From IMG/VR virus record IMGVR_UViG_2778261619_000008: 14,190 nucleotides of DNA. One strand, written 5' to 3'. Position numbers and translations under genes: made by a program. The number at the start of each line of letters is the position of its first letter. The stretch's first letter is position 1. Of this stretch, positions 2,795 to 14,190 are shown one piece after another. The notes under the pieces are model-generated. The model ran no database searches. It was given only the letters and a program-made list of their open reading frames with translations, and was not told where the DNA came from. The stretch comes from a virus. Lineage: Duplodnaviria; Heunggongvirae; Uroviricota; Caudoviricetes.

Positions 2795-5387
2795 TTGCAT
2801 ATTCCTTAGCCCAGCGGGGCAGTGATAATGTCTTAATAGCTGGCCATTCATCGGTATTCAGGCAGTCAGACAGGGTTCGCAGATTGCGGTGATATTCCTG
2901 TTGACCTGCCAGTTTTGCTTCTTCGCCCATCATGAAAATTTCAACCGGATAACGTCCGCATTCAATAGTTGTGCTGGCAACCAGAAAAACGAAAGTTGGC
3001 TGCACTCCAAACTGTGCTTCATAACCGTCACTGTAGAATGCATCCTGAACGTGATAGCGGTAGTCGTAATAAGCGGTTTTGAATCGTTGAATATCCGCCG
3101 TAGTTTTCACGTCCATGATCCAGTGAAATTCAGGGATAATTTTGTCCGGACGGCACCGACACAAAATTCCTGTTTCAGGATCTTCCCAGTAAATTGATGA
3201 TTCAGCGTGTCCGGCGCTTTCAACAAGCCATTGCCCCAGCGGCAAAGCCATAACGCTTTGATACATGAGTTCAATTTTCCGGCCTTCTTCCGCAGTGATA
3301 ACCGTTTTTCCTGTGCTTGCGCATTCCATCAGAAACGCTTTCTCTTCTTCTTTTCCGGCGTTTGTACGGCGGTTAAATTCAGGTGCTACGATAAAGCGGT
3401 TACTGAATTCTTCCGGTTCAAGTACCCGGCAGTGGAAAGCAGTTCCTAAATCGAGCGTTTTTGTCTTTGTGGTGTCCACGGGGGCATTTTTACGCCACAA
3501 ATATAGTGCCGGAGTATCAGCAATGTCATCGAGCTGAGACTTACTGATACCGGGACCCGCGTGGTAATTCTCATTCGAAATTCCGTAATAAATACCTGGC
3601 TCTATGTCTTCTACGATTACGGGATCTGCGACTTCGCCAGTTTCATCACTGCAATCGCGATGGGGATCGCTGCCAGCATTCTCATTGTGCGGATGTTCAG
3701 CGCCTTCCATTTCCTCCGGATCATTTTCCTTAGCTTCAACCTGACTCTCTTCATCGAATGTTTCCTGGTATGTTGCGTCGCCCATCACCGCACCACAGTC
3801 AGGGCAGTTATCCCCGCCAGTCTGGCCGCAGGCATTGCAGGCTATTTCCGGTTCCTGTTGCACTACTGGCTCAGGTTGATTCATATCTGGGCTGGTTTTT
3901 TCCGTTTCTGGCTGGTTCTGGTACACACAATCGCGAGTCTGGATCCCCTTTACCCATTTCGGATCGTTCGGGTCGCTAATTCCGTCAACAAATTCACCAC
4001 GTGATGCAGCAAGCAATTTATCGGCATCGACAGGATTTTTTGATGGAATGTTTTTCCGGGCTTCATGGAGTTCTGCCCGCAGTTCCTGATATTTCGCATC
4101 AACAGAATTTACCTGTGACTGAGCATCCAGCGGCTGCGTGTCCTGATGATGTTCAGTTGCGTCCGGTTCCATTGTTTCAGCCTCTCCCTGTTCAACTGCC
4201 GTTGTTCCAGATGGTTGCGGTTTTTCTTCATCATCCTGTTTTCCTTCTTCTGTTACTCGCTGCGGCATCGGGGCAGAGGAGCGACCGCAGGCAATATCCA
4301 CGATTTCCGGATCAGGGTTGGCATGATCGGTTTCAGTCAGTACTTTGTTCAGATATTCAGTGACGTGCGCGGGGATGACCTCGATCCCAATTGGTGCTTC
4401 TTTTACGGACGCAACCACGATGGCGCGGGAATAATCCAGCCCGCCAGGCATGGTGATGAATTTGTCGCGGAAAACAGAAAAGGGCGGTTTATTTTCAGCG
4501 ATAATTTCCTCAATGCGTTTAGCGTGTGCCGGATGAAGGTTATAGATGTCCAGATCCATTGAACGGGCCAGTACGCCAGTGGCTACGTCGCGCGCCAGTG
4601 ACGTCAGATCGTGTACGAAACCTTCGCCGCGATCGGTGAGGTTTCCGCCGCCAGCATTAGCACCGGAAGCCGTGCGAGTGATGTGTGAAACACGATTACC
4701 CTTCATCCACTCTTTTGTCAGCAGTCCTCGATCGGTGTAGTCAGCGTTCAGGTATGCTTCGAAAAAAGCAGTTATCAGTCCCAGGTTTGAATTACCAGGA
4801 TTAGGGAAAACTTTGTCAGTGTCACGAACCAGTTTGTGGAGTTCGCGAATTTCCAGCGGGTCGAGCAGGCTGGTTTTGTGGGAAACAGCCAGGGCAGTAA
4901 CAGCCGGTAGTTCTTCAGCCCGAGCAATGTGTAATGCCTGGAGTCCGTCGCGTGAAACGTGCGTTACCGGTTTTTCGCTGCCGTGTTGAGCAAGCCAACG
5001 AATGGGCAGTTCCTGGCCAGAAATTGGGAGTAGCATATTCTCCTCAATCTCAGTCATGTCTTCGCCGTTGACGTTGGTATTGCCTTGATAGTGAGCGTTG
5101 TCTGGTGCTGCTCCCGGTTTTAGTTCCCATGTCATGGAGTCTTTGCTGAGTTGATAGCGTTCACTCCAGGTAAAATCGATCTCACCTTCAGCGGGCAGGT
5201 CATTAACGACAGGAAAATTCGTGGCAACAGCTTTAAAATAGCTGCTCAGTTTTTTACCTGACTTAACGATCAGGTAGTCCAGAGTGGCACAGGTCGATTC
5301 AAAATCGTTGCTTGCCCACAGGACGACGTCAGGTTCACCGGATGATTTTTTCGCTTTCCGTAACAGGAAGAGTGGTTTTGTGCTCAT
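2787..5387 (-). CDS. recE: RecE exonuclease VIII (5'-3' dsDNA exonuclease), 866 aa
   Basis: 866-aa track ORF ([24 protein letters not shown]...) with an acidic low-complexity middle and a C-terminal nuclease domain. Matches Rac RecE in sequence and length. A GAGG Shine-Dalgarno lies 9 nt upstream. Confidence 0.94.
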
Positions 5388-6009: not shown

Positions 6010-6230
6010 CACCATGACTCCGCCTTTACAGGTAAACCATCACGACCGAGGAAGACTTTAATCATGCGGTCAGTAATGCATGTTTTTGTGGTCAGGTTAC
6101 GAATATATAGTTTTCGCTTTTTAATATTGTTTGCCGAGGCAATATATGTCCGGCCTTCATGAAGAACATAATCGCCAGGAGTCACACACTGACGTGGTAT
6201 TTCATCAGTTCCGAAGTGATGTGCAATCAT
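6009..6230 (-). CDS. kilR: KilR cell-division inhibitor, 73 aa
   Basis: Within track ORF 6009..6242. The ATG at 6230 ([26 protein letters not shown]...) has a GGAG Shine-Dalgarno 5 nt upstream. Matches Rac KilR. Confidence 0.83.
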
Positions 6231-6671
6231 AATTATCTCCATTTTTACAAATGAACTTTGTTGATGCGGTGCCTGGTGCCTCCAGGTGACTGCAACCAGT
6301 TAACAATTACAGTCGGCTTTCCCACCCAAACCAATAAGGACTAACATGACTTTTAACTGTGCCACGTGCGCTTAGCCGCATTCACCGCATCACAAAATTC
6401 ACTTTAAAAAGGGCGGACATCAGCCGAACTTCAAGAAAAAAACTGATGCCGCCAGGACTACACACAGCAATGTCGTTATTTACAACCGGAGGCGCACTCC
6501 CACCATTTAAATTTAACAGACAAGACCGACTCTTTATGGATATCGGAAATGCGCCTTCGTGTTGTGCCCGGTTTTATTTCACCACCTCCGGGCTTCGGTG
6601 GTCTCGGCTATACCCCTACAGCGAGAGCTTGTGTTAACATTTCAATACCCTTACAGTTGAGAGTTATTGAT

Positions 6672-11300: not shown

Positions 11301-11723
11301 ATGGCAAAAGTATTAACACAGGAAGAGCGAGAAAAAATTAAAGGGCAGATTGTTGATCTCGTACGCCAGAGTGGGCGCGAGACGTTAAGGCAACTGGAGG
11401 CCAAGACAGGGGCGACAAGATATCTGATGAGCATTCTTGCCAGAGAGTTGGTTGCCAGTGGCGATGTATACAACTCTGGCTATGGGTTATTTACCTCTGA
11501 ACAGGCTCGTAAGGACTGGAATAACGCCCGCAAAAAACTATCCAGGGCAAAGGTGAAAAAAACGGTTGTGGTTGATCCTGACCTTATCTGGTCATTACCA
11601 GACGGAGAAATACGCCGATATGACGGGCGTCTGAATATAATCTGTAGCGAGTGCCGTAAGAGCGAAGTTATGAAGCGTGTACTGATGTTTTATCGAGGAA
11701 GTATCCAGGAATTTATTCGGTAA
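11301..11723 (+). CDS. Uncharacterised protein, 140 aa, HTH-like N-terminus and C-terminal CxxC
   Basis: Track ORF 11235..11723. The ATG at 11301 has a GGGGAGGG Shine-Dalgarno upstream (MAKVLTQEEREKIKGQIVDLVRQSGRETLRQLEAKTGATRYLMSILARELVASGDV...). Its N-terminal pattern resembles that of the preceding gene. Confidence 0.6.
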   Translation: MAKVLTQEEREKIKGQIVDLVRQSGRETLRQLEAKTGATRYLMSILARELVASGDVYNSGYGLFTSEQARKDWNNARKKLSRAKVKKTVVVDPDLIWSLPDGEIRRYDGRLNIICSECRKSEVMKRVLMFYRGSIQEFIR

Positions 11724-11859
11724 GCAAAATCAAAATGTAATCGCTCAAGTTTAAGTTGGTGTATCTACGGCGCAGAGCCATCGCCTCATCTGGCACTGCG
11801 CTAAAATCAAATTTAGTTCCACTCTTTATTTTGTATCTGCTAAAACGCTACATAAGATT

Positions 11860-12132
11860 TTACTTTTTTAAAGAATAAGGGAATATGTGCACCATATTGG
11901 AGGCTAGTGGATATATTCCTATGCTACGAGTTGTCTTTTTTAGTTGATCTATGCTTGCTTCTTTATCGGGAGCCCGGCCTCCCCACACTGTAACTCCCTC
12001 AGGTATATCGATTGGGCGACTTTTGTTTTCATCTGTGATTTCAATCGTTTCCCCATTATTAAGCGTAATAATCAACGATGACACGTCCAGGTGTTGTGTA
12101 TTCCCATTTTTATTTTTAATATCTATTTTCAT
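11860..12132 (-). CDS. Orphan hypothetical protein, 90 aa, in an AT-rich segment
   Basis: Track ORF MKIDIKNKNGNTQHLDVSSLIITLNNGETIEITDENKSRPIDIPEGVTVWGG... is hydrophilic with no signal peptide. There is no Shine-Dalgarno, but a perfect TATAAT on the minus strand (plus coordinates 12142-12147) sits where a leaderless mRNA would start. Coding status is uncertain. Confidence 0.35.
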   Translation of the reverse strand: MKIDIKNKNGNTQHLDVSSLIITLNNGETIEITDENKSRPIDIPEGVTVWGGRAPDKEASIDQLKKTTRSIGIYPLASNMVHIFPYSLKK

Positions 12133-12402
12133 GGCTATTTCATTATATGTTATCTGTGCTGGAGTAATAAGTTTACGGTATTAAGAAGCATTTTGACGAA
12201 ACAATCAACTGACTTATCAGCTAAGGTGGCATTGTAATGCGATCTGATTGGTATCATCAGGACGCTGTTCAAAAAAGGGGGATTAGTTGATCTTGAAATC
12301 TTGCTCAAAATGTGTAGCCTCTCGTTTAACTGCCAACTTTTTGGGGCAGTACACTCTGATGCTACACAACTTGCAAGTTTCATTACCCCGACGTAAACAT
12401 TT

Positions 12403-13071
12403 ATGACAGTTGCTGATTTCAAACGTCCTAAGTTGGAGCTCCCAAACGGGGCAAACAAACTACTATTACACTCTTGTTGTGCACCATGTTCCGGTGAAGT
12501 GATGGAGGCTCTTCAGGCCTCAGGAATCGACTACACCATCTTCTTCTATAATCCGAACATTCATCCTCAGAAAGAGTATTTGATTCGTAAGAATGAGAAT
12601 ATTCGATATGCTGAACAACATGGTGTACCGTTTATCGATGCTGATTACGACACTGACAACTGGTTTGAGCGAGCCAAAGGAATGGAATGGGAGCCCGAAC
12701 GTGGGAGGCGTTGTACTATGTGTTTTGACATGCGTTTTGAACGGACGGCGCTGTACGCCGCTGAAAATGGTTTCAGTGTGATCAGCAGTTCACTGGGCAT
12801 TTCTCGCTGGAAAAATATGCAGCAGGTTAACGACAGCGGACGGCGAGCTGTCGCACATTATCCGGGCATGGTGTACTGGGATTATAACTGGCGCAAGCAG
12901 GGAGGCTCGTCCCGCATGATTGAAATCAGCAAACGCGAACAATTCTATCAGCAGGAATATTGTGGTTGCGTGTATTCACTTCGCGATACCAATTTACACC
13001 GCAAATCCCAGGGACGCCCTCTTATCAAAATTGGTCAACTCCACTACGGTAAAGAAGAAGGGCAGGAATGA
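12403..13071 (+). CDS. queH: Epoxyqueuosine reductase QueH-like (DUF208), 222 aa
   Basis: The translation contains the [11 protein letters not shown] motif near the N-terminus and a later CxxC ([16 protein letters not shown]), which I recognise as the DUF208/QueH signature. The RBS is weak. Not verified by search. Confidence 0.75.
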
Positions 13072-13380
13072 TTTTTACATTACGTCAACAGAGTGTCACA
13101 ACGTTTCTATATATGGTATGCCGACCGTAATTTTCGAATCATCATGACTAATAGGCAGGTCACCTATGCCAGCAATGACCTGCTCATCTTGAAATTAGCA
13201 GAAATCTTGTAGCTATGATGTAGCTCAAAATAGTTTTTCATTCTTTTACCTGATGTCTGTTCCTGGCTGAAAACAGACTGTATTATTTAATTACGCACCA
13301 CTGACACTTGTTTATTGAAGTAGTGAGTACAAAGCCACATATTTATCAGTGTATGTATACGTCAAAAACAGGAGATTGTT

Positions 13381-13470
13381 GTGCTGGTTCTGAAGTGTGC
13401 GTTAGCAATAGTGGCTGTGGTGGCAATTTATTGCCTTGTTGTTGTTCTTATGGAGCGACTTTCTGATTGA
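13381..13470 (+). CDS. Candidate small hydrophobic peptide, 29 aa (GTG start)
   Basis: Hand-translated: AGGAG at 13370-13374, then GTG at 13381, giving MLVLKCALAIVAVVAIYCLVVVLMERLSD, a single predicted transmembrane helix with a charged C-terminus. It is below the ORF-track cut-off. Confidence 0.3.
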   Translation: MLVLKCALAIVAVVAIYCLVVVLMERLSD

Positions 13471-13615
13471 TTACATACTGGCTAAAAAAAGCGTTTGCCT
13501 GGTTTATCTTTGTCCGGCAAGGTGCGCTCATTAATCTGAAGTAAATTTATTTCTTAAGTATTCAGATTACTTCTTATGGTCGAAGTCTCCTGGCAATGTA
13601 GAACCAAAATATTTA

Positions 13616-13653
13616 CAAAAAGGAGACCCGTCGGGGATAGCCCTGCCGGGTCT
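13616..13653 (-). terminator. Candidate Rho-independent terminator after the yeaR-like gene
   Basis: On the minus strand, a GC-rich hairpin (GACCCGGCAGGG / CCCCGACGGGTC, about 12 bp with 2 mismatches, loop CTAT) is followed by CC and a TTTTT run. It lies about 30 nt downstream of the stop codon. Confidence 0.55.
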
Positions 13654-13682
13654 GACTGTTAAAGCATTTTTAATATGATCAT

Positions 13683-14021
13683 CTATTTTTTGGTGCTATA
13701 GACTTTTTCGCCTGAGAAGTCTGGAGCGACCCAAAAGTTAATATTAAACTGAGCATCATCGCTTAGTTCAACACGGTGCCAGTATTGTGGTGGGCTTGTT
13801 GCAAAAGAGCCAGCATTAATAACTACTTTTATCTCTGGTTCAGTAGTATTCTCATCAGCAAAACCATAATATGTTACAGTGCCTTCCATTACGCACAACT
13901 GCCCAAAAACACCTGCTGCTGTATTATGATGTGTTAATAATGCTGAAGGTACGTTCTCTTTTGTGAAGAACGGAGTTGAGCGTTTGATTACCCAATCTTT
14001 AGGAATTCTCTTGTGTGTCAT
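13683..14021 (-). CDS. YeaR-like DUF1971 protein (tellurite-resistance TehB-associated domain family), 112 aa
   Basis: Track ORF 13683..14027 starts at a GTG. The ATG at 14021 has AGGAGG 5 nt upstream. The translation (...RSTPFF...HHNTAAGVFGQLCVMEGTVTYYGFADE...AGSFATSPPQYWHRVEL...FNINFWVAP) follows the YeaR/DUF1971 pattern as I remember it. Confidence 0.75.
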   Translation of the reverse strand: MTHKRIPKDWVIKRSTPFFTKENVPSALLTHHNTAAGVFGQLCVMEGTVTYYGFADENTTEPEIKVVINAGSFATSPPQYWHRVELSDDAQFNINFWVAPDFSGEKVYSTKK

Positions 14022-14036
14022 AACCACCTCCTATAA

Positions 14037-14059
14037 AACATGCATTATGAATGCTCCTT
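14037..14059. promoter_or_regulatory. NsrR-like dyad overlapping the putative -10 of the yeaR-like gene
   Basis: AACATGCATTATGAATGCTCCTT resembles the 11-1-11 NsrR consensus (AAGATGCATTT-N-AAATACATCTT), about 17 of 23 positions by my alignment. The minus-strand hexamers TTGACA (14071-14076) and CATAAT (14044-14049) are 21 bp apart, which is not canonical spacing. Confidence 0.3.
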
Positions 14060-14190
14060 TTGAGGAGTTATGTCAAGCTGTTATGAAACACATAATTGAT
14101 ATGTTGATTAGAGGATAGACTGGCCCCCTGAATCTCCAGACAACCAATATCACTTAAATAAGTGATAGTCTTAATACTAGTTTTTAGACT

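Follow-up and report, generated by a model that had tools for sequence, protein, structure and literature searches.

Two unrelated enzyme families, QueG and QueH, are predicted to catalyse the same reaction, the conversion of epoxyqueuosine to queuosine in tRNA, and they differ in cofactor: QueG reportedly depends on cobalamin, whereas QueH reportedly does not. Escherichia coli does not synthesize cobalamin de novo and has to import it, and without cobalamin QueG leaves the tRNA at epoxyqueuosine. We analyzed a queH gene on a 14,190-nucleotide (nt) stretch of DNA of a Caudoviricetes virus (IMG/VR record IMGVR_UViG_2778261619_000008), to which we refer as the window and to which positions apply unless another sequence is named. 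Very probably, the intact gene is accessory ('moron') cargo of the nin region of a Rac-type prophage, and the conspicuous sequence features on either side of it are incidental by-products of the mosaic make-up of the region.

Among phages, related situations have been described for the morons of lambdoid nin regions and for the clusters of 7-deazaguanine genes. With the former, queH shares the position between replication and Q genes, a variable neighbouring slot and the occurrence in many mosaic backgrounds; a promoter and a terminator of their own are typical of classic morons, whereas none were detectable for queH. With the latter, it shares that genes of the queuosine/archaeosine pathway are phage-borne, but those clusters are connected to preQ0-derived DNA modifications and include DpdA, whereas here a lone, tRNA-specific gene for the last step is found. 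No homologs of QueA, QueG or QueH were reported among the viruses analyzed by Hutinet et al. (2019; PMC6884629), and we found no paper on prophage-borne QueH in the searchable literature. The protein itself is an ordinary member of its family and, as a phage gene, seems to be undescribed.

The queH gene and its place in the prophage

The gene had been called QueH-like (DUF208) in a preliminary description that was made from the nucleotide sequence without database searches, and comparison with the family profile bore this out. The predicted protein matched PF02677 over the full length of the model (profile positions 1-174 of 175; E=1.2e-65; 221.3 bits against a gathering cutoff of 23.5) and also matched QueH of Thermotoga maritima (PDB 7LC5; E=3e-22). 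In QueH, three pairs of cysteines act as metal ligands, and Cys25/26, Cys104/107 and Cys187/189 of the window protein align with cysteines of the T. maritima enzyme, so that the CC, CxxC and CxC motifs are common to both. The two differ in that the prophage protein has a 19-residue N-terminal extension, carries Cys29 where T. maritima has Asp13, and belongs to a temperate phage whose host has a QueG of its own. An identical protein is present in RefSeq (WP_000214879.1), where it is already named 'epoxyqueuosine reductase QueH'. The closest relatives outside E. coli were QueH-named proteins of Erwinia, Gibbsiella, Photorhabdus, Providencia, Proteus and others, at 79-86% amino acid (aa) identity, which makes it probable that the prophage gene was captured from another enterobacterial lineage.

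The unit that contains queH (12355-13075) was recovered from 995 of the 5,426 complete E. coli genomes (~18%), with an identity of at least 99% (the window type) in 43, of 90-95% in 924 and of 80-90% in 28 of the carriers; E. coli B REL606, O157:H7 and O104:H4 are among them. Chromosomal queG was found in every one of the 5,426 genomes, and therefore all strains with queH own both reductases. Within IMG/VR, 188 viral contigs contained queH. Pairwise comparison of three prophage allele types yielded ratios of non-synonymous to synonymous substitution (dN/dS) of 0.046-0.065 at a dS of 0.27-0.46, values that indicate strong purifying selection on the prophage QueH, comparable to that on a housekeeping enzyme.

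The window represents a lambdoid prophage of the Rac type. It is integrated next to ttcA, and its gene order is: intR, xisR, rcbA, ralR/RalA, recT, recE, racC, kilR, sieB, the repressor gene, ydaT, a replication gene, ydaV and the genes encoding DUF1627 and DUF977. The DUF977 (ren-like) gene precedes queH and genes encoding DUF1367, DUF1364 and DUF1133 (Q-like) follow it, i.e. the gene lies within the nin region, with the replication module on one side, the Q-antiterminator-like module on the other and the same orientation as the early-right operon; this is the location of nin-region accessory genes. It is thus situated inside the prophage and not adjacent to it, as had been stated initially. 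All lambdoid contexts inspected (10/10, including the isolated phage HannyBb) had queH directly after the DUF977 gene, and the genes on its 3' side varied: hokD, an NgoMIV restriction-modification system, a Kiwa-like system or a gene encoding DUF1971. From the Rac prophage of E. coli K-12 all genes from ydaW through the lysis genes have been lost, and to our knowledge K-12 has no queH anywhere else. This loss accounts for the gene having been considered unexpected, a judgement that is only partly fair given the existing RefSeq entry for the exact protein and the presence of queH in 18% of the complete E. coli genomes.

Consensus scans in three contexts recovered neither a promoter nor a terminator of queH's own, the two elements that define a moron in the strict sense; the gene is followed by a conserved hairpin without a U-tract. 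The 49-nt leader that precedes the coding sequence contained no Shine-Dalgarno (SD) sequence and no consensus promoter in the scans, and the Rfam covariance models, applied to 11700-14190 at E ≤ 1, matched no riboswitch (e.g. preQ1) and no small RNA (sRNA). Two potential signals were considered and discarded: a conserved TGCTACAC(T) that could be read as an extended -10 element, for which one allele has TGCCACACT, and, in the other alleles, a potentially conserved hairpin of the native 5' flank, which is broken in the O157-type. As the scans revealed neither a promoter nor an SD nor a riboswitch belonging to queH, the gene would most likely be transcribed as part of the phage early-right operon, and lysogens might express it constitutively at a low level. 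In the window type the native 5' flank beyond position -49 has been replaced, so that its regulation may differ from that of the other alleles.

Predicted function of the prophage QueH

On the basis of its family membership, the prophage protein is predicted to be a cobalamin-independent iron-sulfur epoxyqueuosine reductase that should turn the epoxyqueuosine at position 34 of tRNA-Asp, tRNA-Asn, tRNA-His and tRNA-Tyr into queuosine. It would then duplicate the last step performed by the cobalamin-dependent QueG of the host. Because QueG has to be supplied with imported cobalamin and QueH needs none, the prophage copy would uncouple the completion of queuosine from the supply of vitamin B12. 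We tentatively propose, with somewhat more doubt than conviction, that E. coli acquires a cobalamin-independent QueH from lambdoid phages, which spread it through the species, and that lysogens could thereby finish queuosine when B12 is scarce and QueG idle, which would amount to a lysogenic conversion of the tRNA modification state. If so, phages would carry a tRNA-specific gene of the queuosine pathway, a class that the 2019 survey did not find in the viruses under study, the dependence of queuosine completion on B12 would be lifted in about one fifth of the E. coli strains, and the common laboratory B strains would differ from K-12 in tRNA modification. Considering that the B lineage contains queH and that the Rac prophage of K-12 lacks the nin region, the two may indeed differ in epoxyqueuosine/queuosine status when cobalamin is not available.

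The protein could instead have been recruited away from tRNA, either to a 7-deazaguanine modification of phage DNA or to a conflict between phage and host, and of the alternatives that we weighed this one survives best, although it is improbable. The position of the gene in a hotspot, where neighbouring prophages contain NgoMIV restriction-modification and Kiwa-like systems, would suit such a role, and the PHROGs entry for the family reads 'unknown function'. However, genes that are DpdA/Tgt-like or related to preQ0 synthesis were absent from the window and from the contexts inspected, and a PADLOC scan of the protein gave no match. Moreover, the 79-86% identity to QueH of other Enterobacterales, the retention of all cysteine motifs and purifying selection at the strength found for housekeeping enzymes argue against such a recruitment.

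The sequences flanking queH

Coordinates of the various features are collected in Table 1. The O157-type and B/C-type queH loci share homology with the window from 12354/12355 onwards, and directly 5' of this point a sequence was found that resembles the right end of the insertion sequence (IS) IS150: a segment of 39 nt was 89.7% identical to it (E=8e-6 against the window), searches of E. coli genomes and plasmids matched 42-46 nt of the region to ends of IS150 and ISKpn8, and the homology breakpoint is located, to the nucleotide, where this sequence ends. The sequence is like the IS150/ISKpn8 right end in extent (37-39 nt, at ~90% identity) and in its terminal CA, and it has the TG...CA terminal repeat that is typical of the IS3 family. 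It differs from these elements in that it consists of the repeat alone: tblastn and the Pfam domain rve_2 recovered no remnant of a transposase and no left inverted repeat partner was found. The similarity indicates that an IS150-group element formerly ended 49 nt upstream of queH and that just the repeat remains. Two other origins were tried and rejected. For a miniature inverted-repeat transposable element (MITE) with two inverted repeats the best left-arm candidate matched at 14 of 24 positions, equal to background, and for a closer intact IS the exact 26-nt repeat had zero matches in species-representative genomes, and a search of plasmids recovered IS150 and ISKpn8 ends only.

Farther upstream, local alignment with a Citrobacter locus (L017) yielded a score of 53 for 12143-12221 (null 19 ± 2), by which this segment clearly belongs to the 5' flank of the divergent gene that encodes a protein of 90 aa. 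A weaker collinear block (12249-12281; score 26, null 18 ± 2.4, equalled in 2 of 300 shuffles) suggests that this flank probably extends to ~12281 and so takes in most of the small open reading frame (ORF) of 17 codons that is listed in the table. The left flank is a patchwork of: i) the 5' region of the 90-aa gene; ii) ~35 nt that separate the IS relic from the end of recognizable homology to this region and contain the upstream motif cluster; and iii) the IS150-like relic at the junction.

Table 1. Features in and around queH in the window (positions and strands refer to the window)
Feature	Position	Strand	Basis or remark
Separate accessory gene, 90 aa, opposite strand	11860-12132	-	Homologs in several genera
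Conserved 5' region of the divergent 90-aa gene	12133-12222	-	Local alignment with Citrobacter L017
SD-like AAGGTGG and 17-codon ORF MRSDWYHQDAVQKRGIS	12223-12290	+	Not conserved
Upstream motif cluster (ATCTTGAAAT, GAAATCTTG, GCTCAAAAT, GTGTAGC)	12290-12318	+	Not conserved
Relic of a right terminal inverted repeat, IS150 group (IS3 family), 37 nt	12317-12353	+	Ends ...CAGTACA at 12353
5' leader, 49 nt	12354-12402	+	Accompanies queH in every context; alignment of 7 contexts
queH coding sequence, epoxyqueuosine reductase QueH, 222 aa	12403-13071	+	Pfam, PDB, RefSeq, dN/dS
3' flank accompanying queH	13072-13481	+	Window-type and B/C-type only; deleted in the common O157-type
Hairpin 1, 9-bp stem, 13-nt loop, no U-tract	13154-13184	+	Just 5' of the first downstream motif
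Downstream motif cluster	13186-13232	+	Words overlap hairpin 2 (13207-13228)
29-codon hydrophobic ORF VLVLKCALAIVAVVAIYCLVVVLMERLSD	13381-13470	+	AGGAG 7 nt before GTG; in recombination-prone junction segment 13313-13482
DUF1971 (TehB N-terminal-like) gene, next accessory gene	13683-14027	-	Pfam PF09313, E=2.7e-26
End of IS3-family element	14120-14190	+	Window ends inside the element

On the right side, the similarity to E. coli C and REL606 continues to 13481 (86.5% identity over 12355-13481), whereas homology with the O157-type ends at 13075, where queH runs directly into the equivalent of 13448 onward. A query of 449 nt (13072-13520) was ~80% identical to the B/C/HannyBb allele over 13073-13481, and 109 genomes covered at least 80% of it. 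Between the window and the B/C-type the stem of hairpin 1 is identical and its loop differs, and hairpin 2 shows one compensatory pair. The terminator scan called no terminator in the 3' flank, hairpin 1 included; the structure of the flank as a whole was not unusual (z=+0.87), and no homology with the IS150 end was detected downstream.

The preliminary description had drawn attention to three kinds of signal in these flanks, all of which are exactly as it gave them: i) short words that recur on both sides of queH, namely ATCTTGAAAT (at 12290 and 13186), GAAATCTTG (12295 and 13201), GCTCAAAAT (12303 and 13223) and TGTAGC; ii) an inverted repeat formed by GTGTAGC (12312-12318) and its reverse complement GCTACAC (12361-12367); and iii) the SD AAGGTGG (12223-12229), 7 nt ahead of the ATG at 12237 that opens the 17-codon ORF (stop at 12288-12290). 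What did not hold was the suggestion that they recur more than by chance, as each was within the expectation from shuffled sequence. The two clusters have ten 7-mers in common, and at least ten common 7-mers between any pair of places in the 14-kb window were reached in 31 of 100 second-order Markov shuffles; the window itself contains two further pairs that are equally good (12105/13665 and 11026/11318). Extended homology between the two flanks was likewise discarded, as their local alignment reached a z of only 2.3 (15 of 500 shuffles as good). Inverted repeats of 7 nt with a spacing of 3-60 nt occurred twice in 12133-12402 (1.14 expected; two or more in 31% of the shuffles), and ORFs of 10-50 codons that start with an SD (5-mer) and ATG numbered 3 per strand, with 4.2 ± 2.1 expected.

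The comparison was extended to the 77 queH loci in IMG/VR with complete flanks. The IS relic and all of the motif words, on either side, were missing from 67 of them. Seven loci (the B/C-type) contained GAAATCTTG, hairpin 1 and the small ORF, all downstream only, GAAATCTTG being the sole exact word left of the downstream cluster, and the remaining three were of the window type, so that 74 of the 77 lacked the upstream cluster. This is the outcome that the preliminary description had named as grounds for giving up its interpretation.

How strongly the left flank is constrained could be judged from a locus of a different lambdoid background (L025; 95% identity) in which the 90-aa gene and queH are joined in the same way. 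This locus is recombinant, with a window-type 5' part and an O157-type 3' part; it has the O157-type 3' junction and hence no downstream cluster, and its queH is truncated by an internal deletion of the equivalent of 12539-12612 (L025, 2164-2403). Compared to the window it showed 17 changes in 12221-12369 (11%), against 1 in the 88 nt of 12133-12220 and 2 in the 161 nt of 12370-12530 (~1% each). AAGGTGG has become AAGATAG, an insertion of 1 nt at 12266 shifts the frame of the 17-codon ORF, GAAATCTTG has become GAAATTTTG and GTGTAGC has become ATATAGC (changes at 12300, 12312 and 12314), with no compensating change in GCTACAC. This concentration of changes indicates that the stretch which holds the SD and the ORF, together with the motifs and inverted repeat, is the least constrained one of the locus. 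The likeness of the clusters, the 7-nt inverted repeat and the combination of SD and 17-codon ORF are chance or decaying sequence, without detectable constraint.

The 17-codon ORF had also been put forward as a regulatory leader; one form of this would be a leader peptide for queH, e.g. an attenuator that senses the queuosine status of tRNA through its Asp-Tyr-His-Asp codons. The good SD at a spacing of 7 nt would fit this, as would the four of its 16 sense codons after the ATG that are of the NAY type read by queuosine-containing tRNAs (GAT, TAT, CAT and GAC), and the predicted upstream RNA, which is moderately stable and has GUGUAGC paired with GCUACAC (z=-2.5). Nevertheless, we consider it very unlikely. 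A leader peptide and its SD should be kept together with the gene that they regulate, and this ORF was missing from 74 of the 77 queH loci, while L025, in surroundings that are ~99% conserved, has lost the SD and carries the frameshift. The enrichment in NAY codons lacks significance (P=0.15), chance alone would produce such ORFs, the ORF ends 112 nt before queH with the relic of the IS end in between, and it lies in DNA that is homologous to the flank of another gene, as the tail of a frame with three stops farther upstream in the window; the same frame is open over 54 codons in Citrobacter. That open frame lies on the strand opposite to the 90-aa gene, across its 5' region (L017, 3760-4003, equivalent to 12133-12290). 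Within it, a pair of homopolymers (12270-12281) is variable: the window has A6G5 (CAAAAAAGGGGG), the Citrobacter relative has A7G8 and L025 has AAAAAAGGAGC. The ORF was also examined as a decayed C-terminus of IS150 OrfB, for which tblastn, Pfam rve_2 on the pseudo-translation and an in-register nucleotide comparison gave no support; we dropped this possibility because the homology to the flank of the 90-aa gene accounts better for the region.

Equally improbable is the idea that a small mobile cassette introduced queH and that the shared motifs mark its termini, be it as terminal repeats, attachment (att)-like sites or a target-site duplication. In its favour are three 9-10-nt words whose order is the same on either side of the gene and a nearby relic of an IS end. 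It fails because the moving unit, delimited by 12354/5 and by 13075 or 13481, does not end at the clusters (12290-318 and 13186-232). The upstream cluster falls 36 nt short of the unit, and the downstream cluster is either 110 nt past its end or, with the right limit at 13481, well within it. It fails also because 67 of the 77 loci carry queH with no such motifs and L025 keeps the upstream cluster, partly mutated, without the downstream one, because the word-sharing score is reached in 31% of the window-wide shuffles, because a second inverted repeat was not found, and because the Rac-type prophages without queH hold a different gene in the slot and none of them an empty site with a single copy of the repeat. 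With the leader-peptide and cassette explanations gone, the flanks bring no new regulatory biology, and the interest of the locus would lie in the phage-carried, cobalamin-independent QueH.

Several points weigh against our account of queH as nin-region cargo with incidental flanks. If the upstream segment is kept fixed, no place in the window matches it nearly as well as the downstream cluster, all others sharing at most ~3 7-mers with it, and the two clusters might conceivably go back to an old common origin. The 201-nt upstream RNA is predicted to fold somewhat better than shuffled versions (z=-2.5; 5 of 200). The constraint on the left flank was judged from one moderately diverged relative, L025, the queH of which is truncated, and the IS relic is delimited no further than its 37-nt repeat. 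Finally, the cobalamin argument draws on established knowledge of QueG and QueH, and the activity of the prophage QueH, its expression and its benefit to the lysogen are predictions from sequence.

Neighbouring genes and further observations

The 90-aa protein is a member of a genuine family but yielded no Pfam, PHROG or PADLOC match. Its homologs in Citrobacter, E. albertii and Enterobacter (61-76% identity) are encoded at prophage ends, where they adjoin cargo such as the genes for cytolethal distending toxin or for type I restriction-modification, and in chromosomal sites. The gene in the window has a perfect TATAAT 9 nt before its ATG and lacks the SD of its homologs, on account of which its mRNA may be leaderless.

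The hydrophobic 29-codon ORF on the other side of queH differs from the B/C-type copy by 8 synonymous and 5 conservative changes and has been annotated once; it may encode a small membrane protein that is otherwise left unannotated. The segment in which it lies (13313-13482) was found in 1,950 of the 5,426 E. coli genomes; in those loci that were inspected, it was located immediately 5' of hokD. The DUF1971 gene that comes next is also present in Rac-type prophages without queH. The transposase of the IS3-family element at the border of the window continues past the window end in three genomes, while other near-identical genomes are without the insertion; another strain has a further copy of the same element farther along the prophage.

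In other contexts the slot just downstream of queH is occupied by defence modules (L004, 6900-8910; L014 and L016, both 3423-5062), which consist of a Dcm methyltransferase with an NgoMIV-family endonuclease or of a Kiwa KwaB-like pair. In E. coli B REL606, queH resides in a Qin-like prophage (L012, 3549-4214). Elsewhere in the window, the antitoxin sRNA RalA was recovered at 1557-1735 on the plus strand (225 bits). Upstream of kilR, at 6223-6466 on the minus strand, a DicF-like match (39 bits, below the gathering score of 48) was found together with a STnc100-like match, at the place where the sRNA kilS is annotated in the Rac prophage of K-12.

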